Source of the DNA: Haliotis rufescens
Lineage: Eukaryota
Direction of reading: 5' to 3'
NCBI RefSeq assembly: GCF_023055435.1
Contig: NW_025964372.1
Span: 5,766,001-5,830,000, forward strand
DNA: 64,000 nucleotides
A program made the position numbers and the translations under genes. Below the pieces are notes generated by a model. It was given only the letters and a program-made list of their open reading frames with translations, did not search any database and was not told where the DNA came from. Shown one piece after another: positions 8,101 through 62,817 of this stretch. The stretch's first letter is position 1, and the number at the start of each line of letters is the position of its first letter.

Positions 8101-11100
8101 AGACGGGTGGATTCACTGCGTCGGCGCACATCGGCAACTACACCGAGTTACACCTTCTCAAACCACGGTTGCCTGTGAATATCAACGGGGCAAGCGTCAT
8201 CAAATCAAGTGAGTTCACGACTACAGAAGACTCAAGTTACCGTGGTTACTAGTGCATAGGTTGATATGTTTTGCTATGGATTCTTTCTAGCCAGGAGGTT
8301 AGGTTGTTATGTAAGTTTTTGCTGCCGTCCATTGTTTGTGGGACCGCCTCCGTGGTCTAATGGTAGAGCGGAATATTTGGGGTTCAATCCCCGACCGCGT
8401 CATACCCAAAGACGTTAAAAGATGGTACTTGTTGTTACCCTGTCTGGCACTCAGCATTAACAGGCTAAAACAGGGACTGGTCGGCTCGGAGTCAGTATAC
8501 TGTGTCTGAGTGGGGTATTCATGTTAAACTGCGGCATGGTATCTTAGTGAGCTAGCACTATAAATCGGCATCAGTCCGGACTAGTACAAGCAGCCACACA
8601 CACATGCATGCACATCGCTACATAAGTGCAATAATCTTGGATGCGACGTTAAACCCCATTTCACCTGACATTGTTCGTGGTCCTGTCATACATCGGAAAG
8701 TGAGTTTTGTTGGAAATCATCAATTGATTCTGTAACCATGTTAATAGCCATTAAAAAATTAAGATTTGAGACCTCAGGCTGATCATGCTGTTGGTTTCAA
8801 ATGAAGTTTTTGGTCATTGAATATTCCATTTTCTTTCAACTCGACCCATACAAGATCGCGTCAGGTAGCGTGTATAATTAAGTAATCAGTGTCAAGACTT
8901 CTAAATTCTCAGAACAAATGAGCAAAGTGTTTGGATTAGCATATTTGATTTCTGTGCCTTGAAAAAATCTAGAACATCCATTTCCTAATGTAGATATTTA
9001 AGGCCCTGACATTATTTTGTTATTGTGGATATTATTTACTCCCGGCCATTTCTGAGCGCCATGGCCCCTCCATCCATCAAGGAATGTTTGTACTATGTTT
9101 GATCTCTGGCACACGAATGTGAGGACTTCTGTGCTAGGTTAGTGATAACGAGGATGGAGACGTCGACATCACTCCCAAATGAACCTATGGTCCAGGGAAT
9201 ATTTGGCATCAGAGATTGGAAATTAGCGCCATTCTCCTGAAGCAAGGGAGTTAACTGACCATAAAAGTCCTGTTCCCACTCTTGCCGAACTAGGCTGGAA
9301 TTATGGAGTTATGCTTTATCTGGACGCATAGTCTACGCATAGTCCAATCAAAATTGTGTAGCGAAATCGACATTCAGTTTGTAAACTGACGTGCAGATTG
9401 TGGTTGATTCAGGATTTGCAAAGTATGTTTACCGACAGATATTTTCCAAATCTTGTCATGTTTTTAATCAAGGAATGCACATGTTTTGATGCACTTCGTG
9501 AAGTAGAACCCATTTTATTAGAATATAGATCTTCATTATCGATCAGATCCTCTTCACTGGGCGATGCACATTTTATATTAAGAAAATGCAAGTGATATGA
9601 GAGGTGGGATCTGATTGGTCAAAAGGAATGACTTAGGAGGGTGTTAACTTGGAATAGCCACTGGTTGCGCTACGATCAAGTCCAGGAATTCCAGCCTAGT
9701 TCGTCAAGGGTGGAAACTGGACTTTTACAGTCAGTTAACTCCCTTGCCTCAGGAAGATGTTAAACACTTGCTGATGTGTGTATGATCAACTTTCACAGTG
9801 TAGGAACTATTTGTTCTTCCAGCTCGTTTCTTTGATGTGAAAGCGGGGAATGTGTATTTGGTACACGCACTGCCTGATTTAGCCCAAGGGGAGTTCGAAA
9901 TCTCCAAAGTGGACAGCACCAGGTAAGAGAGCGGTCAGTTGGAGGGAGATGGTCAATACAATCATATAACACAAGGGTCAGGAGGCACTTTGCACAATTT
10001 GATGACTAGTATTATTTGTCAGTAATTTTGAAGAGCCANNNNNNNNNNNNNNNNNNNNNNNNNNNNNNNNNNNNNNNNNNNNNNNNNNNNNNNNNNNNNN
10101 NNNNNNNNNNNNNNNNNNNNNNNNNNNNNNNNNNNNNNNNNNNNNNNNNNNNNNNNNNNNNNNNNNNNNNTTCCTCAACATGCTCAACAAGTCTGTGTGT
10201 TTACAGACCCGTGAAGACCTGGGGTAAAATAGGTCTTCAGCAACCCATGCTTGCCATAAAGGGCGACTATGCTTGTCGTAAGAGGTGACTAACGAGATCG
10301 GGTGGTCAGGCTCGCTGACTTGGTTGATGCACGTCATAGTATCCCAATTGCGTGGATTGATGCTCATCATGTCAATCACTGGGTTGTCTGGCCCAGACTC
10401 ATTTATTTACAGACAGCTGTCATATACCCCGGTAGCTGGAATATTGCTGAGTGCATCATTAAACAACAAACAAACAAACAAAACATCTGGAAGACAGCAT
10501 GTCGCAATTCAAGCACAACCTTGTGAGGTTCCACAGTTGAATGTTTAGATGGCAGACTGGGATATAACTGAAATACTGTACAAAGGGGAGGTAACTCACT
10601 CATACCTTGGTCCCACGGTTCGTCAGGAGAAAGGCTGGTTGAGTCAGTGGTTGGTATAGTGGAATGTGTTGATGTTTCAGCTACAGTGGTGTGGCGTCCA
10701 CGGTGGAGACCCTCAATTCAGATGTAAGTATTGTAATGAAGTTTTTTAAATCAGGAATTATTTTGCTCATGTAACACATGTGTCAGGATGTTAAAAAAAT
10801 AATAGATAGTGATAATCATTCGGGCAGGCTATCGATATAGATTATAGAGATCGATAATCGCTTACTAAATATCAATCAGTTATTGATAAATATCGGCGAA
10901 GTAACTTTAAGTAAAAAAATATGCAGATATAACAAAAACAGTTGCTTTCCGTCTTTGACAATTGACATATCAACAAAAACATGACTGTCTTGGTAATTCT
11001 CCAATTGATTTCATCACAATAGTTTATGTAAGTTTTGTAGTGCAGGGGAGATAACTACATCAGAGAAAAATCCCTTCTATGTTTCGGCTGTTTTGTCAAT

Positions 11101-16285: not shown

Positions 16286-16552
16286 TTGGTTTTGTTTTGT
16301 TTGTTGTTTTACGCCGCACTCAGCAATATTCCAGCTATATGACGGCGGTCTGTAAATAATCGAGTCTGGTCCAGACAATCCAGTGATTGATATCATGAGC
16401 ATCAATCCATGCAATTTGGATCGATGACATGCATCAACCAAGTCAGAGAGCCTGACCACCCGATCCCGTTAGTCGCCTCTTACGACAAGCATAGTCGCCT
16501 TTTACGGCAAACATGGGTTGCTGACCTATTCTACCCCGGAATCTTCACGGGT
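16286..16552 (-). mobile_element. Retroposon family A
   Basis: Full length, TSD taacaaacttt. Confidence 0.9.
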
Positions 16553-16868: not shown

Positions 16869-17129
16869 GACCCGTGAAGATTGGGGTAGAATGGGTCTTC
16901 AGCAACCCAAGTTTGCTGTAAGAGGAGACTTTGCTTGTCGCAAGAGGCGACTAACGGGATCAAGTGGTCAGACTCGCTGACTTGATTGATGCACATCATC
17001 GAATCCCAATTGCATAGTTTGATGCTCATGATATCAATCACTGGATTGTCTGGTCCAGACTCGATTATTTACAGACCGCCATCATATAGCTGGAATATTG
17101 CTGAGTGCGGCGTTAAACAACAAACAAAC
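16869..17129 (+). mobile_element. Retroposon family A
   Basis: Full length, imperfect TSD gaaaagg.ag.a. Confidence 0.9.
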
Positions 17130-18900: not shown

Positions 18901-19226
18901 GTAATGTCCACAACAAAAGCTTTTTATTTATTTATTGCAAAGACTGACACAAGATCCACTTCACAAAGTTATCAGATGTCTGGAGGCAGTAACCCAGCAG
19001 CATGTTGCTAGTGGCATGATCGTGTCCAGGGCGACCCACAGCTTCTGGGTGGAATACACCACCACCAGTGTCTGTTGACCAGTATTGCTACATTAGATTC
19101 TTGATTCACAACAGCTACTACCATCGATGGATGTCTTGTGAGACTATGCATAACCAACAGATGGATCATTGTTTCATTGCATCTAGGGTTAATATTGAAG
19201 AGGGAATTGTCCTAAAATACATTTGG

Positions 19227-28600: not shown

Positions 28601-31600
28601 CCCACCCCAGAATTATCCCTGATATTCCCTTTCTTAAAACTGACTTAAATGCTCCCATACATGTTCTTTTGTTGATGATAATATTACCCAAAATGCAAAT
28701 TTCATTGCCTTAACTCAGCATAAGTAAGTTTGTGAGTATGGCGTTACATTGCTTTTGGCAATATACCAGCAATATCAAGGACGGGGACACCAGAAATGGG
28801 TTTCACACATTGTACCCATGTGGGTAATTGAACCCATGTCTTCAGTGTGACCGCTTTAACTAGACCGCTTTGTACTAGGCCGGACTGATGCCGATTTATA
28901 GTGCCCGCACAATGAGATACCATGCTGCAGTTACACATGAATACGCCACTCAGACACAGTATACTGACTCCCAGCCGACCAGTCCTTGTCCCTTAATGTC
29001 GAGCGCCTGACAGGGTAACAACAAGTACCATCTTTTAACGTCTTTTGGTATGACGCGGTCGGGGATCGAACCCCGGACCTTCCGCTCTCCGGGTGGACAC
29101 TCTACCACAAGACCACGGAGGCGGTCTTTGAACTGAGAAACCTAGAAACATATCAAGGCCCAAATCTGGGATTCAAACCCACAATCAACAGTTCTTTGCA
29201 CCCCAAAGTGATGAAATCTGCACAGCAAATTGTGCCTTGGATGACAGGACCACCCATTTCCAGGTTCAACTGTATACCAATCACCCCTAGCTGCTGATCA
29301 CTGACCTGTCTTTATCAATGACAGCCTTCTTCTCCAAGGCATAGATGGCCTCCTTGTGATCCTGATCCTTCTTGGCCAGCTCTTCTTCCATCATGGCAAA
29401 CTTGGCCATCAAGTCCTCCTTCTGTACCTTGAACTCCTCCAGAGAAGCTAGCTTGCCACCTACAACAGGGAGAGTGAGTGAGTTGGGTTTAATGCCGCTT
29501 TGAACAGTATTCCAGATATATCAGCGTGTCAGTTTGATGGCAAGGAAGGGCTAACTGATGCAGGTCTCAGACGTTGACCACTTTGGTGAAACCACAAGCA
29601 TGGGTATTGTGCTGTAAACCTAGAAACATAATCAGGGCAAACTGGGATTTGAACCCATGATCATCGATTCTGGTGCGTCCAAGTGATGCAACTCAGCACA
29701 GCGAAATGAGGCACCTTACATGATTGTGGCTACCCGTGACCCTGACAAGGGCGTGAGTGAGTATGCATTTATAGAATTACAAAAGTAATACAGATGACAA
29801 CGACATTCCTTGATGAAAATGCATCAACATGACATCATACAAGAAATGACATTGTCTGTAAGAAATGACAAAAAAAGTCATGACATTACTTTGGGCATAA
29901 TGGATTTTAACAATGGGATCGACATTAATGCCACAGATTACAGCCCTTGGCCCCGTTCCACAAAGCAATCTTAGCGCTAAGACAATCCTAACTCCCATAT
30001 CTTAACATAGACTTATGATAATCTTAGAGCTAAGATCACTTTGTGCAACAGGGCCCTGAAATAGATCTGATTCCTGCATGCTTTCAGTATCGCCAGCATC
30101 ACTTATCCCTTACCTAAGATCATGTTCTCTGATGTCAGCTGATCCTTCATCTCCTGGTACTCATTCCTCAAGGACTGCAGCTGATTCTCGTAGGTTTCCT
30201 TCTCTGCATCTTTGGCTTGTTGCAAACCAATGAAACGATCGTTCAAGTCTGCCAGTTCATCAGCTGAAAAACAATGGTTCAGGTGACAATAACGCCCTTG
30301 AAAATAGTTTAAAAAAATGAATATAAAAAATAAATTGCCTCCAACTTCACATTTAGATTGAGTTAAAATTTTACATCGCGATACATGGCAATACTGCAGC
30401 CATATTGCGATGAGAATAAGTTATTTATCATTAAATATGTCGACAAAGGAGAGTGAAACAGTAAGGTAAGTATCACAGTTAAAGTATAAAACAAACCAGA
30501 TCAATATTAAAACACATCATTTTACAATAGATTATTTAGTATCAATCAAGACTATGCTATAGACTACTAGCAACCAAAGCTAGACCACCTAACTGGGGAT
30601 CATGGTGACTTACAGTGCTTTTGCTTCCTGCATGATTCCCAGCAGGATTAATGCCATCACTTTGGTTACCAGTGGCTGAATGCAATGCTAACCAATATTA
30701 AAAAACAAAGTACACTCAAGAAATTAAAACACTAGTCAATGTTATATACTTCAATGTACCATTGGATGAAATTGTAATAATTAATTTCTTGGGGTGTATG
30801 CATTATTGCTACTGTTTATTGTTGTACAGCTTGTTATAAGATGCAGAAGCTTACACTTTTTCTCCACTTGTTGTTTCCAGAAGGACACGATCTCCCTCTT
30901 ATCCGTGTCCATCTGGTCAAACTTGGCATGGAACTGGGCATTTCCAACTTCAAGCTCATCACACTTTTTCTGATACCTGCAGGGATTAATAAGACAGATT
31001 AGTCTTTGTTTGTTTGTTTGTTTGTTGTTTAATGCCACACACATCAATATTCCAGCTACATGACGACGGTCTGTAAATAATCAAGTCTGGGCCAGACAAT
31101 CCAGTGATTGACATCATGAGCATCAATCCACGCAATTGGGATACGATGACATGCACCAACCAAGTCAGCAAGCCTGATCTCGATCCTGTTAGTCGCTTTT
31201 ATGACAAGCATAGTTGCCTTTGATGGCAAGCATGGGTTGCTGAAGACCAATTCTACCCTGGATCTTCACGAGTAATAGAGATTGGTAGAAGTATTAGGAT
31301 GATGTATCAAGTGAGAGGCTGTTGTTTTATGCCACAGTCAGCAACATGAAAGCAGGGACTTTTCAATCTAGTGACTGAATCCATGCTGAAAGCAAAGGTC
31401 ACATTGGGATACGATCACCTGCCAATCATATTACCATCTTAGTCAGCTCATTTAGATGACCTAAAGGAGAAGGTGTTTTCAGGCCCCTTTTGGCCCATGG
31501 ATAAGCATAATTTAAGAAATGAGGAAACCATTTTAAGTCATTAATACAATTGAAGAGCTTAGAGCTAAAAGGGGCCAAAATGCACTTTGGCCCTTTTTGC

Positions 31601-35358: not shown

Positions 35359-38300
35359 ATGGCTGCCAAACCAAAGTGGCGAAAGATCCTCTACGAGGAC
35401 CAAGGTGTTCCTGATAACTACGTCGACGCCAGTTTCTTGGATGAATTAAAGAAGAATTGTATGCTTGCATATTTCATCTAACGAAAATCTTCCATGTCTA
35501 ATTCGAAAGACCTTTGTTGGAAGCGTTTGGTCCTGATTTGATTCTGAGGGTTATGAATAAGAAACACGAAATGAGAAATAAATGTCATGTCTCATGAACT
35601 GTGTCGCGATAGTATCATACGATACGTAACTGGATTGTATGATGATGATTTCCATATGTTCCGGACATTGTTCATTCTCGCCTCATGTTCCCATGTTTGG
35701 TTGGACTGTGGTGATTAGGCTAGTAGAGTTTCAATGATATCCAAAGGCGCCTATGATTGCAGTGGCTCTGTTTTTAAATGGATTTTAGTTGGAATTTAAT
35801 CTAAATTACGTAATTGATCATTATTGTCATTATGGCCGCAAATAAGTTCAATTTAGTAATAACTCAAAAACAGAAAAATACTCAAGCACAACTGTGCATA
35901 TGGTTGATGTGTGTGTAATATACATTGTCACCTGTCATGGTAGATCGTTTGGCCTGTCATTGATTGTGAATTTGTGTACATAAGTAGCCAATTCAAATGG
36001 GATATAAAACACTACGACAATGTCAAATATGTCAGTGAAACATGTATGCATGAATTTTAATTGGTTTACGAATCCACCATCACTCAACAATGGTTAAAAG
36101 TGGAAATCTAGCTGAGAGTCTGAAAAGCACTATTTGTACTGTTTGTTCTATTCTTACAAATGTAAATTTACATAAGTCAATAAATAGATATATTCCTGTA
36201 TTAGTTGAAATGTTTACATCTTTTTGTTTGCCAGTGTACACCCGGAAATATGAATACCTGCCGCTGGTTTACGAGTCAGGAGTGATTACTCAGCATCTTA
36301 GCAGGTACCAGTAGCATAAACTGCCAGGTCTCTTTTTACAGATGTATTGAGCATATGCAATTCAATTTGCAAAGCAGCATCATTTTTTATCATGGGTTTA
36401 AATTCTAGAATTGTCCTGATTATCGTTCTTGGTGTTCCTTGGTTCCTCACACATTAAGCTGACATGCTGTGATAGAACAGAAATACTTACAAAAGCAACA
36501 CCAAGTCTCACTGAGCATAAGTCAAAATGCTTGTATCGATGCTCATGACATCAGTCACTGGATTGTCTGGTCCAGACTCATATATTTACAGACTGCCGTC
36601 ATATAGCTGGAATATTGCTGAGTGCGGCATTAAACAACGAACAAACAAACAAACACAAAAATACCTTGTGATGATGTATATTATGTGAAGCCAGAGTGAT
36701 AAAAAAACTGTACAATCACACCTTTTTATGTAATTTTAGAGAAAGCTTTTCTTCTTGTTGGCACACTTAAATCCCAAAAGCACACCAGAATGTTTTTAGG
36801 AGAGTCCTGTGGCTGATGTAGTCCAAGGTTTTCCTCAGTCATGATTGAATGTGTATCGTTAAATATTTACATGTAATAGGGTTATTTTACATGGTGTCAT
36901 CTCCTGTTCCAGCGTCTGCTTGTTTGTGATAGTGTTTGTGTACATGAATGAGAAATGGTTGTCGGCGGAGAGTCTGTGTGTTGTGTCCACTGGGGTAACT
37001 GTCGTGGCGTACCTCCTCAATGAAGTCATCGATGGTGGACAGAGTCGGTCCCAGTCCAAGAGGACAAGTAAGTTTGCCGTCTTTGTAGGCGTGTGTCAGA
37101 GATACAAACCCTGTAAACACCATCTTCTCAGAAACTACTGGACCAATGAAGCTGAAACTTCACATGCTTGTTGGAAGCAGAATTCATGAGGTTCCAATGA
37201 GGTGCCACCGTGGCAGCCATATTGAAAAAGCTATTTATGTCTTGATCGTTGTATGATTAAAAGTGTGTGTTTGAATATTTGAATATCAATACTAACAACA
37301 ACTGACCCGTGAAGATTGGGGTTAGAATAGGTCTTCAGCAACCCATGCTTGCTGTAAAAGGCGACTATACTTGTTGTCAGGCGGCTAACAAGATCGGATG
37401 GTCAGACTCGCTGACTTTGTTGATGTGTGGATTGATGCTCATGATATCAATCACTGGATTGTCGGGTCCAGACTCGATTATTTACAGACCGCCATCATAT
37501 AGCTGGAATATTGCAGAGTGCGGCGTTAAACAAGAAACAAACTGGCAGCAGCATTTTCTTTGTTGACATTTTAGACCGTTGACTACAGCTGGGGTGCCGT
37601 GGCACTAGACTAGTTTTATGCTGATGCACTAATTTGCACCCTGTAAAACTCTGCATGCATGTTATATTCATAATATATTCATAATATATTCAATTCGATA
37701 AATACTAGACAGAAGGTTTGCTTAGTTGATTTTATAGGCATTCACCTTATGAGTATTCCGTGCAGAATAAGTCCCTGTGATACCTGTTGCTTGTTGTAAG
37801 AGTTGACTGAAAAATGTTGATCGAGGGATAGTGTGCAATCGTACAACAAAGGCTGTTAACCACTTGTTTACTCCAAATTTTTGCAATCGTGATACAGCTG
37901 GAATATTAATAGGATGTAGCAATAACGTATTAAAACAACATTTGTTCGTGTCATGTTTCTGTGAAATCATATTTGTTTGTAGAATGGCCCAAATAAGGAA
38001 TAAATTTTTAACAGATATTTTCGAAATTGAAAAAGTAAATGCTTTGCTTAATTTCTTATCCAGTGATGGACGATCTGAAGACGGCGGTTCTGTTTTCCGG
38101 CTTCAGTTTTGGTCTGTCACCGATCTTAGTGTCCCTGACAGAGACAGTCAGCACTGACACAATCTATGCCATGACAACTATCATGCTGCTGGCCAACGTG
38201 CTGTTCCACGACTACGGTGCAAGTGCTGCGATGTAGGTGTTAATATATTCACTGAAATACTGAGCATGTTGAGTGATGGATTATATCAGCGTGTCAGACT

Positions 38301-41279
38301 GAACCAGGACATCTTCCCGAGGCAAGGGAGTTAACTTACAATAAAAGTCCAGTTTCCACCCTTGCCGAACTAGGCTGGTATTATGGAGTTACATTTTGGC
38401 TGGACTAACGAGTCTATGCATAGTCCAATCAAAATCGCGCACCGAAATCGAAATCCGGTTCGTAAACTGTCATGCAGATTTCGGTCGATTGCAGGATTTG
38501 CAAAGCATGTACACCTCCAACTCGTTGTCAGCTGATATTTTCCAAATCCTTTCATGTTTTTTATCAAGGTGCTCACGTGATTAGATGCCTTACGCGATGT
38601 AGGACCCGTTTTATCACGATAGAGAACTCGATTATCGATCAGATCGTCCTGACTGGGCGCCACCATTTTGTGTGAAGCAAACGCAAGTGATATGAGAGGT
38701 GGAATCTGATGGGTCCATAGGAGAGGTTTAGTAGGGTCATAACTGGTAATAGCCACTGGTGGCGCTACGATCGAGCCCAGGAATTCCAGTCTAGTTCGGC
38801 AAGGATGGAAACTGGACTTTTTAAGTCAGTTAACTCTCTTGCCTCCGGAAGATGGATACAGGAGGGGAATGATGCAGATCGTAGAATTTACCACTGGTGA
38901 CACAGTGTTGGAAATTAAACTTCTATTCCAGACAATGATCATTAGGTTCCTTAAGGTTGAAAATTGTAAACTGAAAAAAAAATTGGCTTTCTGGAATGTC
39001 TTTCAGTTGGCCGGTTATTGTATGGCAGTACGTCCCATGGTATATGGAAATTATCTTATGTTCCAAATGTTTATCCTATTGGACAGGACCCGTGAAGATC
39101 CGGGGTAGAATAGGTATTCAGCAACCCTTGCTTGCTGTAAAAGGCGACTATGCTTGTCGTAAGAGGCGACTGATGGGATCGGGTGTTCAGGCTCGCTGAC
39201 TTGGTTGATGCATGTCCCAATTGCGTGGTTGATTATTTACAGACTGCCATCATATAGCTGGAATATTGCTGAGTGCGGCGTTAAACAACAAACCAATCTA
39301 TTGGACAGAGATCATGATTTGATGATAGATGATAGATGATGATTTGACAGTATAAGTCATACAGCCCATCATTGTCGTTCGGAAAGCCTTGTATTAAACT
39401 TTTCAAGATTGTATGATTAGAAAACACATTTGGACTTTCACATTCATGGTTTCATCAGCTGCCATTACCCTGTGGGGATTCTAGGTTAGAATATTCTGGA
39501 AAAGGACCCCAGTGTCCCATGTTTGTCGTAGCAGACGTCCACTTGAATCAGTATTCATGTTCGGTGACTGGGTGGATTGTACCCAGGTGGCATTGGACAT
39601 TGTTCATTATCATGATTATCATAAATCATGATAATATCAATCATGGGTTTGTCTGGTCCAGACTAGATTCTTTCTGTGTGAGGTGTTATACAAAAACAAA
39701 ATCCATGTAATCAATCCCTGAATTATTTATTGATTGTGGAAACTTGGAGAAATTCCTTCTTGAAAGTGTAATTAAAGCTGCATATAACTGTTTATCCAGC
39801 TTGTTCTACATGAAGGTGACTGGATTAGATGCATGGCATCACATCTTGTCCCAGCCTCTAGTCATGAACTCTGTTGATGTTCCAGTGTGTCTGGCACCCT
39901 GTCTCTAAGCGCGGCAACGTTCGCGTCCGTGTGCCTGGCGTCCCGCCTGAACACCACCTGGCATGCCTTCACAACCATTGTGTTTTCCTTTGAGCTGTTC
40001 GCTCTGTGGCCTGTCCTGAGGCGGAAACTGAAGGTATGTGTTTGATGGCCATTCCCCGTTCTAGTTTGCAGATTATCCTCCACCAAAAAAGTGTTTTGCG
40101 GCAGATATCGAAACGGGTTCCATCTGTCCGTCCGTCATGTTTTGTTTCCAGAGCATAACTCAGAAACCATTTAATATATCTTCATGAAACGTTATATACA
40201 TTTCATGCATGCATTGAACTGTTGCCTTTTGCTATTCGGGATTTTTTAACAGGCTTAAACTTTTTGTGCATGTGATGACCGTAGAATATCCAGGTTTATT
40301 CATGGTGTCACTATTTGCATTCAGTGATGTCATTTTTTTTCATTTCCCAAGAATCTTTTGCACCAATCTTCCTTTAACTGACTATAAATATTTGTACCAA
40401 AATAAAGTAAAAGTGTCATCAAGTTATTACTTCAAAAGAGCTGCGCGTCACAGCCTTGTGGCGCTATTTTGTTTTCTTTTGGAGGACAGCAGTTTGCAAA
40501 CACACAAGATAATTCAAGTGGCCTCCAAGTCTCCCACATATTTGTTTAAAGTTGTCTCCACTATAGTGGCTGAATTGTCTTCAAACAATTTTAAGGTGTC
40601 ATGCTTGTCGAAGAGGCGACTAACAGGATCGGGTGGTCAGACTCGCTGACTTGGTTGATGCATGTCATCGTATCCCAATTGTGTGGATCGATGCTCATGA
40701 TGTCAATCACTGGATTGTCTGGTCCAGACTGGATCATTTACAGACCGCCGTCATATAGCTGGAATATTTCTGAGTGCGGCGTTAAACAACAATCAAACTA
40801 ACAAACAAAATCAAACAATTTTTAAGCATTTCTTACTAAAACAAATTGTGTTTAAGTTTTAGTTTGAATTAAAGAAAACATGCTTTATGTTTATGGCATG
40901 AATGAGAAAATAACAAGTTCCATATAATTTTTCCAGACTCATGCACCCAGCAGCCAGGTTCCACTGACTGTCCTCCTGGGGGGCGGGGCACTGATGCTGC
41001 TGTTGTCCGTCACAACAGCAGGCGCTGTGTTGTTCGCTGTGTTCCATCTGTTCATCACATTCATCTGCCCCTACTGGCTCACCAGACTACAGCTTTATAA
41101 AAAGTGAGTATGCATTAATTCTAGCTTTTTAATTGAACCATAATAAACTTTTGAGAGACAAATGTTTCTGACACTATAAAATCCTATTTCTTTTGAACAT
41201 GGAAATGAATGTATTTCTTTTTTTCAGTAACATCTACGGTCCATGGGATGAAGCTGTGATTAAACCTGATCCATCATAA
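35359..41279 (+). CDS. PIGC: Phosphatidylinositol N-acetylglucosaminyltransferase subunit C (GPI2), 286 aa
   Basis: Exons 35359-35458, 36235-36304, 36913-37067, 38064-38232, 39886-40033, 40937-41103, 41228-41279, all in phase. Motifs [55 protein letters not shown] and [10 protein letters not shown]. Confidence 0.95.
37304..37541 (+). mobile_element. Retroposon family A, internal deletion
   Basis: Starts at GACCCGTGAAG and has the family tail. Confidence 0.88.
38310..38854 (-). mobile_element. MITE family E, full length, internal 98-codon ORF open
   Basis: TIRs, near-TSD gaaccagga/gatacagga, and ORF 38666-38370 (MVAPSQDDL...CNSIIPA). Confidence 0.92.
39087..39295 (+). mobile_element. Retroposon family A
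   Basis: TSD ctattggacag flanks the GACCCG start and the aaac tail. Confidence 0.88.
40601..40810 (+). mobile_element. Retroposon family A, 5'-truncated
   Basis: Matches the family A body and tail. Confidence 0.85.
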
Positions 41280-41417: not shown

Positions 41418-42472
41418 CATCTTCCTGAGGCAAGAGAGTTAACTGACTTTAAAAGTCCAGGGCCTGGTTCAACAAGGCGATCTTAGCGCTACGATCATCG
41501 TAAGCCTATGTTAAAGTATGGGAGTTACGATCATCTTAGCGCTAATATCGCTTTGTGGGGCCTCGGCTGGAATTCCTGGGTTCAGTCGTAGCGCCACCAG
41601 TGGCTATTATGGGTTATGTCCTTTCTATGCCTCTCCTATTGACCAATCGGATTCAACCTCTCATATCACTTGCATTTGCTTCAAACAAAATGGCGGCGCC
41701 CGGTCAAGACGATCTGATCGATAATCAAGATCTATAGTGTGATAAAACGCGTCTTACATCGCCAAGTGCATCAACTCACGTGAGCACCTTGATTAAAAAC
41801 ATGAAAAGATTTGGAAAATATCTGTTGACAACGAGTTGGCAGTGCACATGCTTTGCAAATCCTGCAATCGATCGAAATCTGCATGACAGTTTACAAACCA
41901 GATTTCAATTTCGATGCGCGATTGTGATTGGACTATGCATAGACTTAAGAGTTAACTCCCTTGCAACTGGACTGGACTGCATAGTCCAATCAAAATTGCG
42001 TAATGAAATCGACATCCGGTTCGTAAACAACATGGATTTAAACTTGGCGTCCACAGATATTTTCCAAATCTTTTCATGTTTTTTATCAATGTGCTCACGT
42101 AATTTGATGCACTTCGTTAAGTAAGACCCATTTTATTACAATCTATATTTTGATCATTGATCAGATCGTCACGACTGACCTCGCCACTATTTTGTTTTGA
42201 AGCAAATGCTAGTGACATGAGAGGTTGAATCTAATTGGTCAATAGGAGGGGAAGAGAGGGGGCCGATCTCATTAAAATCAGATCTTAGTTCTCGCTACCG
42301 CTAAACAAAGCTTTGTACTAAGATCTGATTTTAATGAGATTGAGAGGGGGCAAAACTCGTAATAGCCATTGGTGGCGCTATGGTCGAGTACAGAAATTCC
42401 ATCCCAGTGCGGCAAGGGTTGAAACTGGACTTATAGTCAGTTAACTCGGGAACAGTTTGCCTCGGGAAGATG
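41418..42472. mobile_element. Composite inverted dimer of MITE family E with two small palindromic MITEs nested inside
   Basis: Forward copy 41418-~41965 joined to a reverse copy ~41967-42472. Inserts at ~41461-41562 and ~42260-42345. Confidence 0.85.
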
Positions 42473-44459: not shown

Positions 44460-44656
44460 GACCCGTGAAGCCGAAGCGACTTACGGGATCGTGTGGTCAG
44501 GCCCCCTGACTTGGCATGTCATCGTATCCCAATTGCATAAATCGATGCTCATGTCGTCAATCACTGGCTTGTCTGGTCCAGACTCCATTATTTACAGACC
44601 GCCGTGAATATAGCTGGAATATTGCTGAGTGCGGCGTTAAATAACAAACAAACAAA
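44460..44656 (+). mobile_element. Retroposon family A with deleted head
   Basis: 12-bp TSD ttgtagacaagg. Confidence 0.85.
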
Positions 44657-45009
44657 TTGTAGACAAGGATCTCGCCATCGGATCTGACCGAGTGGCATTG
44701 GCATGGAATTAGATATCGGACATTTTATAGATAACACCTGCAGCAATTTCTACTGCAGTTATTCCATGAAAAAAACCCCAATGCAATACCAGCGACAATT
44801 TGGTTTGTTTGTCTCCGAGATTTTTCATGAGCAAAAGCCAAAATTTAATTTGGAGGTTTTGAAGTGAAAATAATCCACCTGTTGCCTTTGAGTATATTTG
44901 CTTGAGGTACACCTACAAGGCAGGCTCGAAGAGCGTTTCTCAGACGGGGGTGTCGAGACCAAACTAAAGGCATATGATTAAATCTAAACATGTATAAAAA
45001 TAAGTCAAG

Positions 45010-45832
45010 GGATCAGATGGGCTCAATGATTGAGCGGATCAGGTGTTCTCAATGACTGAGAGGATTAGGTGGGCTCAATGACTGAGAGGATCAGGTGGGC
45101 TCAATGAGTGCAGGGATCAGGTGGGCTCAATGACTGAGAGGATCAGGTGGGCTCAATGACTGAGAGGATCAGGTGTTTTAATGACTGAGAGAATCAGGTG
45201 TTCTTAATGACTGAGAGGATCAGGTGGGCTCAATGACTGAGAGGATCAGGTGGGCTCAATGACTGAGAGGATCAGGTGGGCTCAATTAGTGCAGGGATCA
45301 GGTGGGCTCAATGACTGAGAGGATCAGGTGTTCTCAATGACTGAGAGGATCAGGTGTTCTTAATGAGTGCAGGGATTAGGTGGGCTTAATGACTGAGAGG
45401 ATCAGGTGTTCTTAATGAGTGCAGGGATTAGGTGGGCTCAATGACTGAGAGGATCAGATGGGCTCAATGACTGAGAGGATCAGGTGTTCTTAATGAGTGC
45501 AGGGATCAGGTGGGCTCAATGACTGAGAGGATCAGGTGGGCTCAATGACTGAGAGGATCAGGTGGGCTCAATGACTGAGAGGATCAGGTGGGCCCAATGA
45601 CTGAGAGGATCAGATGGGCTCAATGATTGAGCGGATCAGGTGTTCTCAATGACTGAGAGGATCAGGTGGGCTCAATGACTGAGAGGGTCAGGTGGGCTCA
45701 ATGACTGAGAGGATCAGGTGTTCTTAATGACTGAGAGGATCAGGTGGGCTCAATGACTGAGAGGATCAGGTGGGCTCAATGAGTGCAGGGATCAGGTGGG
45801 CTCAATGAGTGCAGGGATCAGGTGGGCTCAAT
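45010..45832. repeat. 26-bp minisatellite (ggatcaggtgggctcaatgactgaga), about 31 copies
   Basis: Tandem units with tgttct and gtgcag variants. Confidence 0.95.
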
Positions 45833-47379
45833 GTATTAGCAGCTTTGCTGTAGTAATTAAATAAGGCGCCTGAACATCCATCTGAGGTATAGCTCCGTAT
45901 GTTGATTATTGATCCCACTCGTTTTGACCTCAGACCGACATTTACTCCCAGAAAGAAAGTTATACTATTTTAAAATATATGTCTACAAAGTACAAACTAA
46001 AAAAGATCCAGCTGGAGCCCAGAACAGTGGTTAATTTCACGGACCCTAGAGCTGGGGCATTCTAGACTTGAGTTGGAGTTTAATATATTCCCTAGGGTCA
46101 AGGAGAGGCAATTTTGGCCTTTGAATTCCGACTTACCCTTAAACCCAGTGATAACCAACGATTTGAAAGTTTATAATCATGTTGTGTTGTTCCCCGTGTA
46201 ATCACATGAACAATGAAACGAAAAGCATAAACATTTTATTCGCATAAATACATTAAATTTTTTAAAAAAAAGCTGTAATACTGGCCGGTGACAATATATA
46301 ATTATGAATGTGAAAACTAAAAGTACATGTGCACAATTTGGCCTTTGTACTTCATGTCAACGCGAGGGCAGAATGGCTCTCTGTACATACATGAAGATGG
46401 ACCCCGCCATTCGTTCAAATAATAAAAGTAACAGCTGTGATCAAATCTCAGGTATATTTCCATTCTGCAGGAACCTGCGCAATAAACACAAAACATCCTG
46501 CCGCAATTAATGGAATCTGTTGTTTCGACAATAATACCACACACGCTACAGACTTGGTTGGATGTCGGATGATTGATGGGATGATTGTCAGGTTCAACTG
46601 TAATTTAGTTTTGATTTGAAGCATTCCTGTAATTTGATGATGTATTTTATATAATCATCCACCCAAATCTATGTCTCAGATGTGTATATTAACGCTCGCC
46701 ATTCACACATCTGACAGTTAACTTTCCATGGTCAGAACCCAATGTAACTGATGTCTGGGTTCTCAAAGCAAAGGTGGAAGTTAATCGCCGCCCCCCCCCC
46801 CCCCCCCCCAAATCACCCCCCACCCCCTCACAAACACCTTCAGTTATATCCATCCAATTTATAAGATATACCAAGCTTCTATCTCTTTCAATAGTGAGAC
46901 TCCCATATTACTGATATCTTGCCTCTCAGCGGATGACCGTGCAATCCTTAACACAATCCTTAAGTTGCACAAAATAATTGGTACTTCAATGATCTTCATG
47001 TTAAAAGTTGGACGATCCTTGGTTATCCGTCATGCACTTCGTCAACACTTCACGGGATTGTACATACTTCGTTCCGCCCATGAATAAATGAGGCTGTATA
47101 TACCGTATTTCCTTTATTAGAATCCAATTTTCGCGGACCTCTAATTAACGCAGGGCCATATATGCTCTGACCAACAATAGAAGCCACAAGGCTACGACAC
47201 GTCATTCATACGTCATCATACATCCCGCCCACGTCATCCTCTCATTGGAACCAATCCTTTGCATGAGTCCTTGGTAAGACTACATAGCAAGACGCCGCTA
47301 TGTATCCACGGGTGTCGGAACTTATTGTACACAAGCCCGTGAAGTCTTGACGACCTGGAACACCCTATCACCACCTCAG

Positions 47380-50300
47380 TCACAGCGCCTTGTGGAGGAC
47401 GTCCACGTTTTGCCGGACCCAGTCCTCGAACGAGAGCAGGTTAGGGTTCATCTGCCTGGTGGACGCCACGTTGTATCTCTGGTCAACTCGGCAGAAAAAG
47501 TAGAACATGTTGGCCCAGTCGCGGACACCAGGGAAGTCAAGCATCTTGTAGTCGTTCACGCTAATCTGAAACACAGGGAATAAGGTGGTCAAATAAAAGC
47601 GACAGAAACATTTCTATTATACATAATTTCATCTTCTTGAGGCAAGGGTGAAAACTGGACTTTTATTGTCAGTTAACTCCCTTGCCTCGGGAAGATGACA
47701 AAATTCATACTTCAAGTTCACCGTACAATGTCATAACATGTGTTAAAGAATCACTATCAAATAGTAATGATACCAGGTGTTTGCGAAAAGGTGAGCGTAT
47801 TCTGCCCCACCAGTGGCATCCGCCTCAAACACTTGCAAATGCAAGTCAATTGAAAAACAACGTTACATATAGCAGAAGTATAGAAAAAACGGAACTAAAT
47901 CGAATATAATCTTTGTCACTGATGCGTCAAATTTGGAAGTTCCCTACACTGAGGTCTTGAGAGTTGTAACCCTGATCAAACAACTTTTGACCAAGTGCTG
48001 CAACGTTTAATGCATCAAAAATAGCGAGCCTGACCACCCGATCCCGTTATTCGCCTCAAAGCATACTCGCTATTTACGGCAAGCATAGGTTGCTGAAGAT
48101 CTATTCTACCCCGGATCAAGCATGAGTGACTGGGGACCTTTAGTACCATAGACCTTTAGTACCGTAGATTACTGGGTTGGGAGATAATGAATAAATACCA
48201 ACATGAATACCAACCCAATTTCAAAACCAAATGTAGTATGGATTTTGATATTTTGGCCCCCTCCCTTTTTGAAATGCTTGATTCAACCATGTGCGAAGCC
48301 CATTTCTAATGTCCCCAGTCGTGATATTGCTGGAATATTGCTATACTCACTCACCCACTCACTGCAATTGCAAGACTGTCGTTACATGAAACACTGTCAT
48401 GGTTACCTGTTTCTCTTTAAACGTTTTGGGTTTGAGGTGTGTGGTGAGGATCTGGGCAATCTCTCTGATCGTGAGCTTGTCGCCGCACACGCTGACCGTC
48501 TTGTTGAGGTACATGTCGCGGCAGAGGAAGATCTTCCGCACGACGTCCCCGATGTTGTCGATGCAGATCATGTCTAGCGGGGCCTGGCCTATGGGCAATG
48601 CTGTAAACAGACATGTCAGATTTCCTAAGAAGCGGGCGAGGTCAAAGAAAGGTGAGGTGACGTGAAATTGGGTTTAACGTCGCGTCCAAGATTATTGCAC
48701 TTATATAGCGACGTGCATGCACGTGTGTCTGCTTGTACTAGTCCGGACTGATGCCGATTTATAGTGCTAGCCCACTGAGATACCATGCCGCAGTTTAACA
48801 TGAATACCCCACTCAGACACAGTATACTGACTCCGAGCCGACCAGTCCTTCTTTTAGCCCCTTAATGCCGAGCGCCAGACAGGATAACAACAAGTACCAT
48901 CTTTAAACGTCTTTTGGTATGACGCGGCCGGTGATCAAAACCCGGACCTTCCGCCCTCCGGGCGGACGCTCTACCACTAGACCACGGAGGCGGTCAGGCC
49001 AAAGAAAGAACCTTCTAACTGTTACCAATTTGGAGGAACCTATGGATTCATGGTACTTGCAGATCGTTAAAAAGATGTTCACTCATCGGTGATAATTCAA
49101 GTTGCAGTATCTTGTTCAATGTGTGCTGAAGGTTTAATTAAAAATTGAAATGGTTTGCACTATAACAATAGTATAAGATAGCGACAGCTTGTATTTCCAC
49201 ACCCGTGAAGAACCGGGTTAGAAGAGGTCTTCAGCAACCCATGCTTGCCGTGAACGGCGACTGTGCTTGTCGTAAGTGGCGACTAACGGGATTAGGTGGT
49301 CAGGCTCCCTGACTTGGTTGATGCATGTCATCTTATCCCTATCGCGTGGATCGATGCTCATGATGTCAGTCCCTGGATTGTCTGGTCCAGATTCGATTAT
49401 TTACAGACCGCTGTCATATAGCTGGAATATTGCTGAGTGCGGCGTTAAACAACAAACAAACACAATCTATTTTCACAACCGTGGACCTGGTGAGTGAATG
49501 AATGTTGTTTAACGCCACCGTCAGCAATATTCCTGGAACAGCTGTATTAGGGCAAACAACCTGCAAACAACCGTGTCTTGACCAGACAAACCAGTGGTTG
49601 ACAGCATGAGCAACGGTTTATTGATGACACACAGCCATCCCGGTATCGAGGCCACACACTGCGCTCCCCATCAGTCGGCTATACGACTAGCATGGGCTGC
49701 TTGGCAAATATCCTGCTGCGGAATCTCTGAGGGGTATACGTGTTTTTCCACAACCACCTGTCATTTGACTGAAGAAAACATTCAAGACCTTTTAGTGTGA
49801 TAGTATGACAGGCAATAGAAACGGATGTCAATTATGTCCACAGTCAAAACGGAGAACACTCATCTTCCCGAGACAATTGAGTTAACTGACTATAAAAGTC
49901 CTGATGCACCCTTGCACTACTAGATTGGAATTATGGAGTTATATTTTGCAAAGCATGTGTACGGCAACCTCGGCGTCGACAGGTATTTTGCAAATCTTTT
50001 CATGTATTTAATCAAGATGCCCACGTGATTGGATGCACTTCGCGAAATAAGACCCTTAATATTACAAAAACGATTTTGATTGTCGATCAGATCGTCTTGA
50101 CTGGGAGCCGCCATTTTGTATGAAGCAAATGCAAATAATATGACAGGTTGAATTTGATTGGTCAGTAGGCGGGACATAGAAGGGACATAACTCGTAATAG
50201 CCACTGGCGGCGCTACGATCGATCCCAGAAATTCCAGCCCAGTTGGGCAAGGGTGGCAACTGGCCTTTTACAGTCAGTTAACTCCCTTGCCTCGGGAAGA

Positions 50301-50730
50301 TGGAAATTATCTGGGAATCATTCAGTAAATATTTATTGAGCCGCCATTTGAATTTTTATTCCCTAATCTATTAAATCAATAATTCATGTATCGATATCAC
50401 AAATTCATTTTTAGATACGAATAAAACGAATGTATTTGTAGATGTCAATAAATGAATAAATTGCAATTGGCTGACTAAGAAATATTCCATAAACCGAAAA
50501 CAATATCAGGCCACGCCCACTAACGGACTGCTCCACCTGGTTGGATGATAACAGAAAGGGCGGGGCTTCCGCTGCATTATTGAGCCGAACGATGTCACTG
50601 ACTTCGAACTGGCCAGAGTTCTGTTTGTGCTTATCATTAAATAAGCAGGCTGTGTAGTTATTAGTGTTATATCATAAACTACATTTTAGGGTATCACAGT
50701 TATCTAAAGATCGAATCTCACATTAATAAA

Positions 50731-52746: not shown

Positions 52747-53289
52747 GGGGCGGGTAACCCAGTCGTCTATATGTCGTAATTCGCTGTGTGGTGTAGCCCC
52801 CCTTAAGCGTGTCAGAACCTATGGTCGCGGATTCGAATCTTGGATTCGTCCTGGTTATGTTTCTAGGTTTGTCAGTAGCTACGGAGCCGTGCTCGAGGGT
52901 TTGACCAAAGTGGTAAACGCCTAAGACCTGCATCACGTAGGTCTTTCCTTCCACAGTAAGCTAACACGCCGTGAAATACTGTTCAAAGCCGCGCTTTACC
53001 AAACTCACTAGACCCGTGAAGATCCGGGATAGAATAGGTCTTCTCCGAACCATGCTTGCCGTAAAAGGCGACTATGCTTGTCGTAAAAGACGACTATGCT
53101 TGTCGTAAAAGGCGACTCACGGGATCGGGTAGTCAGACTTAGCTGATGAATGCCTTCGTATCCCAGTTGGGTGGATCAATGCTCATGATATCAATGTCTG
53201 GATTGTCTGGTCCAGATTCGATTATTTACAGACCGCCGTCATCTAGGTGGAATATTGCTAAGTGCGACGTTAAACAACAAACAAACAAA
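52747..53289 (+). mobile_element. SINE family D (52747-53009) followed by retroposon family A (53011-53289) inserted in its tail
   Basis: The family A copy starts at GACCCGTGAAG inside the actcac tail, and the tail resumes after it. Confidence 0.8.
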
Positions 53290-53545
53290 AATGCTCACTC
53301 ACTCACTCGCCTCGCTCACCTCACTCAATCGTGCTACTATAATTTTTCAATGTTGGATTTTCTGTAACTGACTGATTTGTTAAACACGGTCTCTTGTTCA
53401 TAAAAGCGAGGTTGGGTGTGACGTCACTTTGAGCATAATTCAACTGTGTTGATTTGTTTAGTGTATTGGGCTGTCGGTATTAATTCTGACATGAAGTAAA
53501 ACATTCTTTTTATTATCTCAATTTTCCCCGCCGCTGTGAATATTT

Positions 53546-57003: not shown

Positions 57004-57586
57004 GAAAGTAGTATTTTCAACAAAATAATTCATGTACTATAGGAAAGTAGGAAGTAAGTCAGATAGATATGATGAACATTGATTATTATTTATTAAACAT
57101 CTTATGTATTGTAAATAAGTACGCGGGTTAGAATTGGTCTTCAGCAACCCATGCTTGCCGTAAGAGGCGACTATGCTTGTGGTAAGAGGCGACTAACAGG
57201 ATCGGGTGGTCAGGCTCGCTGACTTGGTTGATGCATGTCATCGTATCCCAATTGCGTGGATCGATGCTCATGATGTCAATCACTGGATTGTCTGGTCCAG
57301 ACTCGATTATTTACAGACCGCTGTCATATAGCTGGAATATTGCTGACTGCGGCGTTAAACAACAAACAAACAAACATTTTTTACATTGTCTGTAATTACT
57401 TATACGCCCGCCTTGTTGGATAAAGAACAAAACCTTTACGCCCTATTAAATATCTTTTACCCTGTTACTTGTACTCATTTTTGTTTTTATTTGCTTTGAG
57501 TTCTTTTTATTTGTACGCCAGTTGTTTTTCTCACGATCTTACCAAACTGAGAAAGACATGTCTTATTGACTGCACTGTATTTTTAA

Positions 57587-60700: not shown

Positions 60701-61973
60701 TCTCAGTGGGCTAGCACTAAAAACTGGCATAAACCTGGACCAGTAGTCACATACACATGTATCCACAGTGCTACATTTAAGTGAAATATATATATTATTG
60801 AACGCGACGTGAAAACCCATTTAAACTCGCCTCACTGTATTTTTATATTTCTTGGAATTAAATCATTCCTGATTGTCAGTCTTTTCACACATTTTGATCT
60901 CTGTATTAATATGTAAATAAATTGTCAGGTGAAAACTTTGATTCTTATATATCGCACGGATGTAAATGCACATAGATCACTCACACGGAAAAAAATAAAT
61001 TGTGGTAGATGACAGAACGACGACTGTGTTGCACATGTTACCCACAATTCCCTGGTGCAAGATTATATCGCAAAGATTTACGACAAAAAGTCAGGCCTGA
61101 ATTCATTCCACTGCCGCGGTGGTCTATTTGTAATAGTTTCCTGAAACGTCTTTGGGACTAGTGGGCAATTGAATATGGGTGATTATTGTAAACAATTGAT
61201 GTAACATGCCATATTTGGTCTACTAGTTCTTCACATTCCCAGTATTTTGTTAGTTGTCCAGTTTTATTTCATTTACACCCTGACACTGCATGACAGTTGT
61301 GGGAAAGTTTACCGCAATAGTGATTGGGAGACAATGCCAACAAGCCTATTAATTACAAGCTGGACCGAGTTCTGTCGTGAATAGGCTACTGTGTTTATTT
61401 ACCTTGAAGAGACATTGCTTATAAAAATTCAGCATGTAAGGGAGGTAATCGCATTGTAGTAAAACAGATGTAAAACAAGGAATGAATTGAAACCAATATT
61501 TTTCGTATTATTGAAAACACATATTTGCTGATTAAACAGTTTGGGAAAATTTAAATGTTGTAAGTTTATTTTGACGATAAAAGAGTTTGCCGCCGTGTTG
61601 ATTCCTCGCTTCAAAGCTAGTGTTCTTGTTTTCTACTGTGGCAAATATTTTCCCTTCCGTTTCCAGAACCAGAATAATCTCCCTTGTTAACACAAGCTCC
61701 CCACAGCGATAGTCCATTTGCGCAGCTCTCTACCCCATCGCGCTGTTACCGAGAGTGTAACGAAGGTGTCACGCGCTGGGAAGGAGCTTGCACAAATCTG
61801 GACGCACTCAGTCGATTGAATGAAGGAAACACTGGACGTTTAAGAAATATCATGACGGAATTGGTTCGGTTTATCCCGGCTTTTAAACTTTAATCCGGAA
61901 TGCATTTGATTAGTATTAGAATTCAATACAGATACAACACAAATAAGGTCACAACTATTAACTATTATTATAT

Positions 61974-62198
61974 TTGTTTGTTATTTAACGACCCACTCAG
62001 CAATATTCCAGCTATTTGACGGCGGTCTGTAAATAATCGAGTCAATCCAGTGATTGACATCATGAGCATCGATCTACGCAACTGAGATACGATGACATGC
62101 ATCTATCAAGTCAGCGAGCATGACCACCCGATCCCGTTAGTCGCATATTCCGACAAGCATGGGTTGCCGGAGACCAGTTCTAAACCGGAACTTCACGG
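61974..62198 (-). mobile_element. Retroposon family A
   Basis: Reverse-orientation copy with a single hairpin module. Confidence 0.85.
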
Positions 62199-62817
62199 CT
62201 TAATAATTATTATGCGTCCCAGGGGTTATCTTTTAGGATATGAAGGACGATGTAATTTGGAAATACCAATAAGTGAAAAAAAATCTTTAAATATTTATAA
62301 ACTATGCAACAATAGATCGAGTATTCATTTTCAGACTGCACTGGTCAAACCTGTGTCTGATACAATGAGCACCGTTTCACGCAATCGGGTACGCCGAAAT
62401 ATTGTATAACTTAAATATACGTTAATGTCCAGCGGTGATTCCGGGGTAGAATAGGTCCAAGGTATCTATGTTTATCAGGTTCGGTGACTTGGTTGAATTT
62501 GTGTCATCGTACCCGAACAACGTGGAGCGTTGCTCATAATATCAACCACTGGTTTGGCAGATCCAGTCTCGACTATTTACGTGGGCCGCCGTGATATGCC
62601 TGACATATTGCTAACTGTGGTGTTAAATAACAGTCACCGACACACTAAGGTCGCATTGTGTGAACACAACCTGTGCATATACAACCCTAGTTTCCCAACA
62701 GGGAGAAATACCTTTCTCATAAGTCATAGTCGTCTCTTAAGTCATACATATAGACATACGATGCAGTAGTCATTATCATCCGTCAGTTAATGGACGTTAT
62801 TTTCGAGGTAAAGTTGA

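Follow-up and report, generated by a model that had tools for sequence, protein, structure and literature searches.

We analysed a 64,000-nucleotide stretch of the Haliotis rufescens genome (NCBI RefSeq assembly GCF_023055435.1, contig NW_025964372.1, positions 5,766,001 to 5,830,000 of the forward strand; hereafter the window) and found that a short interspersed element (SINE), represented by the full-length copy at 49201..49464 on the + strand, opens with a predicted RNA structure that recurs in long interspersed elements (LINEs) and in viruses. The element type itself is already known, as LP-SINEs of 255 nt have been described from molluscs, Haliotis among them (Matetovici et al., 2016; PMC4758252). 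The fold of its head appears to be undescribed in print, well supported by sequence comparison and common to viruses, while its function we infer. We tentatively read the first ~90 bases as a mobile RNA module, plausibly a 5'-to-3' exonuclease block that would set and protect the front end of uncapped RNA.

Predicted fold of the SINE head

The head is predicted to comprise a 5' H-type pseudoknot and a downstream stem closing an invariant hairpin, and covariation across retroposons and viruses supports this arrangement. In the 49201 copy (all positions on the + strand), the first helix of the pseudoknot, S1, joins ACCCG (49201..49205) to CGGGU (49214..49218), the CGGG lying 8 nt downstream of the 5' CCCG. 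The intervening 8 nt inside the S1 loop (49206..49213) pair as S2 with the strand after AGAAUA (49226..49233), across a pseudoknot loop (49219..49225) whose AGAAU is invariant in 21/21 aligned homologues and reads AGAAG here. Further downstream, P3 is formed by the CCC of AACCC (5' strand, CCC and AU, 49238..49242) and the GGG that follows UAA (3' strand, (C)GGG, 49287..49290), and it closes the GUCGU/GCGAC hairpin D, which together with the UAA junction occupies 49269..49286. In a preliminary description of this DNA, the 5' strand of P3 had been placed in the pseudoknot. Three separate unpaired patches are invariant, namely AGAAU, the hairpin loop and the UAA junction; the 49201 copy deviates at two otherwise invariant positions, with AGAAGA for AGAAUA and UAAGUG for UAARAG. 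It also carries an extra imperfect copy of the hairpin (49247..49261), typical of the main SINE subfamily.

Homologues were retrieved with a 17-letter head pattern, which gave at least 120 metagenome loci from several repeat families of animal-like DNA, and viral contigs as well. For a fold derived from some of the rows on which it was tested, a partner-swap test was run on 19 hand-picked representatives, with segments cut at sequence-only anchors (the L084 row being off by one base); cognate strands beat swapped partners for S2 (z -7.9) and P3 (z -4.5), each with 0/20,000 permutations. P3 was tested by duplex energy instead of alignment columns because of register shifts between families. S1 gave z -2.1 (503/20,000) on the 19 rows and z -2.9 on 12 less related ones. 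In a MAFFT alignment of 14 retroposon-type heads, S1, S2 and D were 88.6% paired, and 8/16 pairs changed on both sides. When LINE and viral rows were included (21 rows), 86.1% of cells were paired, 11/18 pairs changed on both sides, all 8 pairs of S2 among them, and none of 500 shuffles reached any of the five measures. The five pairs of D never vary, so they yield no covariation signal; in LINE heads, additional compensatory changes are seen in P3 and at the base of D. As an independent check, a pattern scan of GTDB, which fixed only the loop and hairpin letters and none of the S1/S2 bases, returned 7 matches, of which 6 pass the S1/S2 pseudoknot filter, a filter passed by ~7/123 chance matches.

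The preliminary description had presented the head as a LINE-related, pseudoknotted RNA element, and this we confirm, together with two of its helices: the stem UGAAGAYC/GGUCUUCA is our S2, and the GUCG...CGAC hairpin is real. Its other two helices perform at chance on the 19 rows, the outer stem CCCGU/ACGGG at z -0.1 and the pseudoknot GGGKU/AACCC at z -1.3; jointly they are 56.6% paired in the 14 retroposon-type heads, and 375/500 shuffles are as good. Within the SINE family alone, the outer stem is possible on paper. The window has no Rfam match at the gathering score, and with loose E-values neither the head nor the homologue loci searched (19, then 9 more) brought a ribozyme or other relevant family. 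A literature search, with subscription journals and Repbase outside its scope, found no description of the head fold.

The module in viruses

In 6/6 distinct small RNA-virus contigs (L186, L187, L189, L191, L193 and L309, with L192 a near-twin of L187), the motif is found on the coding strand after the last open reading frame (ORF), ~6 to 120 nt past the stop codon. Owing to this position, it is very likely that the module acts at the RNA level. The motif is in tandem in L186 and L309. Pfam recognized an RNA-dependent RNA polymerase (RdRP) in four of the six contigs, with tombusvirus-type RdRP_3 as the best match in three of the six, and only an RNA-virus capsid in L186 and L187. Looser viral scans gained one virus (L309), and a further scan gained none among the matches listed.

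The motif was also detected in a large AT-rich DNA virus of 212,482 nt (L188:7981-8059), downstream of an NAD-dependent DNA ligase gene and between a short ORF and one of 1,056 codons, with the next ATG ~150 nt further on. In S2 its sequence is close to that of the SINE, and the HDV (hepatitis delta virus) ribozyme descriptor detailed below found no such fold within 10 kb. A SINE has been reported at 157.8 kb in an iridovirus genome of 212,482 nt (PMC6401454); the motif lies elsewhere (~92 kb). As for phages, only chance matches to the motif were obtained. A prokaryotic occurrence was rejected, since all 7 GTDB matches lie in eukaryote-like, simple-repeat or contig-end DNA. Seven GTDB bacterial assemblies (L327-L333, L335) hold eukaryote retroposon DNA, which represents contamination, and an intact 6.1-kb LINE is present within a bivalve-symbiont scaffold.

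Nimb-like LINEs carry the module behind a predicted ribozyme

One of the GTDB matches turned out to be an intact LINE with the module (hereafter also the knot) at its start; it encodes an ORF1 of 449 aa and an ORF2 of 1,236 aa (endonuclease, reverse transcriptase and RNase H), followed by a short tandem tail; this layout we take to be that of the Nimb/I group. The LINE proteins have at least 150 relatives in the H. rufescens genome. Among the best 30 ORF1 loci found by one query, which are not a random sample, 28 possess the knot 615-680 nt upstream of ORF1.

Directly 5' of the knot, 26 of these 28 LINE heads contain a separate module of 57 nt (within L336-L365; e.g., L358:717-773). It conforms to an HDV descriptor (P1 with G-U wobble, P2, 3-bp P3, 7-nt L3, P1.1 GG and a C-N-A-A junction) in 25/28 heads, and the 26th has a mutated P3 of that fold. 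The module has a minimal HDV-type fold without P4 and scores 27-28 bits against Rfam RF02682, below the cut-off of 44. Upstream of its G1 the flanks of the 26 loci are unrelated, and a target-site duplication (TSD) abuts G1 in four of the five full-length LINEs examined (L396, L398, L400 and L403), none being seen in L402. Three LINE families, 67-76% alike, share the module, which we predict to be an HDV-type ribozyme starting most of the sampled Nimb-like LINEs. Nimb is absent from the ribozyme-bearing LINE clades listed in PMC5786205. The remaining two of the 28 heads (L340/L341) have no ribozyme; there the element starts at the knot and TSDs abut the knot, as in the SINE. Comparison of LINEs L396-L403, which are 67-76% alike in their bodies and ~90% alike over 726 nt of the 5' region, suggests that the 5' module has been swapped between LINE families. 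The junction differs among intact LINEs (UAA, CAA, UGA, CUA and CGA).

The coexistence of the two modules bears on the proposal, made in the preliminary description, that the head is a self-cleaving or promoter RNA. If the knot were cut or used as a start site, the upstream module would be lost in one copying round; the LINE families that retain it therefore indirectly suggest that their knot normally neither cuts nor initiates at its own 5' edge, and both activities at that edge are disfavoured, although the adjoining ribozyme could mask a cleavage site. The small-RNA reads obtained were too scarce to reveal ends on the sense strand, and one run contained 127 antisense reads of ~30 nt, a size like that of Piwi-interacting RNAs, all with one start at L358:780-810; these may be copies of one molecule and may stem from a related species.

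The SINE head is 73-75% identical over 60 nt to the LINE heads of this genome, and its tail (49405..49464, + strand) resembles the 3' end of the Nimb-like LINEs, with 31/35 identical positions for L396 and L400. Hence, the idea of a bipartite LINE-derived element stands as far as both ends of the SINE are concerned, but not for the ~110-nt middle, which matched only neighbouring SINE copies and nothing inside the nine LINE stretches tested. A search for the autonomous LINE sharing both ends likewise brought Nimb-like relatives, but none with the exact SINE head and an (AAAC)n tail among the LINE stretches compared.

Abundance and 5' boundary of the SINE

Exact head 34-mers occur 7,560 times in the 1.33-Gb genome in the double-hairpin form and 1,478 times in the single-hairpin form, with 0 matches for reversed controls. 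The main subfamily is thus the one in which the hairpin is present twice, through a 22-nt duplication within the conserved core, a feature that the preliminary description did not mention. Forty evenly spaced 10-kb stretches (400 kb) contained 70 SINE copies of at least 60 nt, which extrapolates to roughly 230,000 copies in the genome. Of the 46 copies with an intact 3' end in this sample, 17 begin at nt 1-4, 6 at nt 5-15 and 23 more internally; half of these 3'-intact copies are truncated, yet the 5' boundary is a sharp one, as had been claimed from the window.

The base that precedes ACCCG is G in 69/95 full SINE heads, positions -2 to -4 being mixed. In other retroposon families the first base is G in 10/10 and 8/10 copies of two, A in 6/10 of a third and mixed in a fourth. 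A start ~0-1 nt before S1 is common to the ribozyme-less elements, i.e., the SINE, two or three metagenome families and the LINE of L397/L401. Two heads in tandem or in close succession were seen at the retroposon loci L084, L050 and L345.

The assertion that the head is not derived from an RNA polymerase III (Pol III) transcript agrees with our results. A tRNA search was negative, and the sole pair resembling Pol III A and B boxes, at 49310 (3 mismatches) and 49348 (2 mismatches), was equalled in 535/2000 shuffles. A tRNA-derived SINE was rejected for these two reasons.

Comparison with known elements

According to PMC4758252, the first ~70 nt of LP-SINEs are common to the LINEs Nimb-17_LMi, I-3_DR and RTE-9_CPB, and a promoter was proposed. 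The SINE studied here resembles the LP-SINEs Hdi_LP and Hmi_LP in being tRNA-less and ~255 nt long and in having TSDs, a short tandem tail and a head of ~70 nt shared with LINEs. The 'Nimb-17 homology' block of the scallop elements in the same paper has the same invariant hairpin-junction motif, and the layout is the same by eye. We conclude that our SINE is probably an LP-SINE, either of the same family as Hdi_LP or of a sister family; the poly(A)-like hexamer stated for Hdi_LP is not evident in the 49201 copy. In contrast to our analysis, PMC4758252 offers the promoter idea with no RNA structure, viral copies or upstream ribozyme.

Among viral RNAs, the closest parallel is found in exonuclease-resistant RNAs (xrRNAs), which reside in 3' untranslated regions (UTRs), are often in tandem and need a pseudoknot (PMC8374639). 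Like class 3 xrRNAs of Tombusviridae and Solemoviridae (ST9a, SCNMV and PLRV), the module has a 5' stem-loop whose loop pairs downstream (3-9 bp there, 7-8 here), an AG-led conserved linker motif before the pseudoknot strand, a place in 3' UTRs and an RNA end that coincides with the foot of helix one. In the ST9a xrRNA, a stem-loop uses its hairpin loop to form a 9-bp pseudoknot, and XRN1 halts at the 5' base of the first helix (PMC11702639). In contrast to class 3, the module possesses an extra invariant hairpin domain and is present in cellular retrotransposons, while in a 2021 review xrRNAs in cellular RNAs are regarded as not yet found (PMC8374639). Classes 1 and 2 were rejected, given that the supported fold has no three-way junction with double pseudoknot and that Rfam gave no match.

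The HDV-like ribozymes of R2, RTE, ingi/L1Tc and further LINEs (PMC5786205, PMC6765202, PMC8256844) are likewise structured modules at a retrotransposon 5' end. The SINE head, however, lacks that fold, and in this genome it is the LINEs that have it, as the 57-nt module upstream of the knot. Twister, pistol, hatchet and hairpin ribozymes were dismissed on their helix order and, again, Rfam returned no match.

The s2m element is a short, sequence-conserved mobile RNA motif in the 3' UTRs of unrelated viruses. Our module is similar in being a short conserved RNA motif of unrelated viruses; yet, it does not match s2m in Rfam, is pseudoknotted and heads retrotransposons.

Possible function of the module

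Our tentative reading is an exonuclease block, an activity that would fit both the first base of the retroposons and the start of the viral 3' UTR. Under this reading, a SINE copy would be transcribed as part of a longer read-through transcript. Once this RNA is decapped or cut upstream, XRN1 or XRN2 would degrade it as far as the foot of the first helix and come to a halt there. The surviving RNA would start 0-1 nt before S1 and could be copied by a Nimb-like LINE protein recognizing the shared tail. Where an HDV-type ribozyme precedes the knot, as in the LINE families that have one, it is the ribozyme that would generate the end, and the knot would serve as a second guard. In RNA viruses a 3' subgenomic RNA would result from the knot, which is what known xrRNAs produce. 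The XRN1 stop of ST9a, at the base of the first helix, corresponds to where ribozyme-less retroposons begin, so the end position fits a block, and the tandem copies in L186 and L309 fit the habit of xrRNAs to occur in tandem in 3' UTRs. More speculatively, animal retrotransposons and RNA viruses might exchange the module as a substitute for the cap; it would then form a new class of RNAs that block exonucleases, with the first examples from cellular genomes. Its pseudoknot would stall XRN1 and so define the 5' ends of promoter-less and ribozyme-less LINEs and SINEs, and the hairpin would recruit a conserved host factor.

Several observations weigh against a block. Hairpin D, the most conserved part, lies 3' of the knot, where it would be superfluous for a mechanical obstacle, while a protein-binding site or a catalytic core would need it. 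The purine that opens most retroposon families would suit a start site or a cleavage site as well. From the class 3 xrRNAs the module differs in lacking the stacked P1/P2, the J1/2 bulge and the L2B loop and in having AGA instead of AGY; with this core absent, it would be xrRNA-like in its working at best and not a member of the class. Covariation in S1, the helix at which the exonuclease would stall, is modest (2/4 pairs, 21 rows), and single-sequence folding of the SINE family prefers the outer stem of the preliminary description, though no better than shuffles do (z -0.47, -0.63). In addition, active self-cleaving ribozymes occur in the UTRs of linear RNA viruses, exceptionally in 3' UTRs (PMC13725137), so the viral location is compatible with a ribozyme.

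The conservation of D would be accounted for by a cap-independent translation element, a rather unlikely alternative, in which the hairpin would bind an initiation factor or the ribosome. The module would then act as a 3' cap-independent translation element (CITE) in viruses and as a cap substitute on ribozyme-cut LINE RNA, and in the SINE it would serve to keep the RNA close to ribosomes that are producing LINE protein. Tombusviridae are uncapped and use 3' CITEs, which gives weight to the RdRP_3 matches, and the pattern of an invariant sequence on a covarying scaffold points the same way. So does the retention of the knot behind an HDV-type ribozyme, 615-680 nt upstream of ORF1, on presumably uncapped RNA, and its place between two ORFs of L188, shortly before an ATG. 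Nevertheless, the SINE is non-coding, a literature search for a similar named CITE was negative, and a translation element alone leaves the ends fixed at the S1 foot in many families unexplained. It can, however, coexist with an exonuclease block. The module might also belong to a new class of self-cleaving ribozymes that cut just 5' of the first helix, with its site blocked or redundant in LINEs where an HDV-type ribozyme abuts it; this we consider unlikely. The three invariant unpaired patches and the purine-rich fixed first base would be expected of such a ribozyme, and there is precedent in the 5' ribozymes of other LINE clades (PMC5786205, PMC6765202) and in the viral UTR ribozymes (PMC13725137). 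Yet, sequence upstream of the knot is kept in 26/28 LINE heads, tandem heads persist in L084, L186 and L309, the commonest subfamily carries a 22-nt duplication in the conserved core (7,560 vs 1,478), the junction varies among intact LINEs, and no Rfam ribozyme matches the head.

A role of the head as an internal DNA promoter ('LINE promoter'), with its RNA fold being secondary, seems very unlikely, since 26/28 LINE heads would lose their upstream ribozyme if transcription always began at the head; the covarying pseudoknot and the presence of the motif in RNA viruses also oppose it. This was the hypothesis proposed in PMC4758252, where the 77-nt head of L1Tc is given as both promoter and ribozyme, and it would agree with the G at the first position and with an invariant palindromic stretch that could be a DNA site. 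Scarcely tenable is the mapping put forward in the preliminary description, which read the head as an HDV-like ribozyme with a non-standard fold. The hairpin followed by C-U-A-A does resemble P4 and J4/2, but the proposed P2 and P1.1 are at chance, neither a P1 nor the P1.1 GG is present, and in 21/21 rows the C in GACUAA can pair with the G that opens hairpin D, an invariant pair that makes it a predicted paired base instead of a free catalytic C in J4/2. A 7-bp P1, G-started at the cleavage site, was matched with the descriptor in 1/95 SINE heads, weakly and with the use of flank, and a stricter descriptor matched 0/130 other heads (some redundant). Given 1/95 SINE heads vs 25/28 LINE heads, the SINE head is not an HDV-type ribozyme; the true HDV-type fold adjoins the head in LINEs. 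This mapping is largely refuted already.

SINE copies and other repeats in the window

The 49201 copy is a tRNA-less repeat of ~260 nt of LP-SINE type, composed of the structured head, the ~110-nt middle, the Nimb-like tail and an (AAAC)n end. A probable but weak TSD (9/10 identical) flanks it at 49192..49201 and 49468..49477 (+ strand). Many sister copies are present in the window. Those on the + strand lie at 10207..10476 and 16870..17129 (both full-length), 37305..37542 (with internal deletions), 39088..39296, 44461..44654 (most of the knot lost by internal deletion) and 53012..53290 (with a third hairpin repeat); on the - strand we found the full-length copies 16292..16552 and 31015..31273 and a single-hairpin copy at 61973..62200. 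TSDs adjoin the head in several of these copies, as had been noted before, directly in 16292..16552 and ending one base (G) before the head in 39088..39296. All nine heads listed in the preliminary description are present where it placed them, including the two on the minus strand (16552 and 31273); the tenth, at 62200, was absent from that list. Its starts at 10206, 16869, 37304, 39087, 44460 and 53011 fall on the G that precedes ACCCG (at 10207, 16870, 37305, 39088, 44461 and 53012), while 49201 is the A.

A degenerate second variant of the head, with an altered hairpin (A-U at its foot), occupies 49503-49720 on the minus strand, tail to tail with the 49201 copy, and two 5'-clipped SINE copies (57117-57372 and 59925-60180) are located inside a 2.8-kb tandem duplication. 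Other repeats of the window include long tandem arrays at 546-2400 (40-nt unit), 19191-21320 (18), 25897-26369 (43) and 44867-45997 (26), and another dispersed repeat, at least ~400 nt long and present on both strands (32037-32435, 38456-38854, 41562-41945 and 49945-50302).

Implications

With the predicted ribozyme of the 57-nt module, Nimb would join the LINE clades that bear ribozymes of the HDV type. The 70-90-nt module itself comes in many natural variants and has a built-in control in the LINE heads with and without an upstream ribozyme. If the reading as an exonuclease block is true, such a block would be a third route to a precise 5' end for promoter-less retroposons, beside Pol III heads and ribozymes, and it would account for the fact that unrelated LINE families have nothing but their first 70 nt in common, a point that PMC4758252 leaves open.

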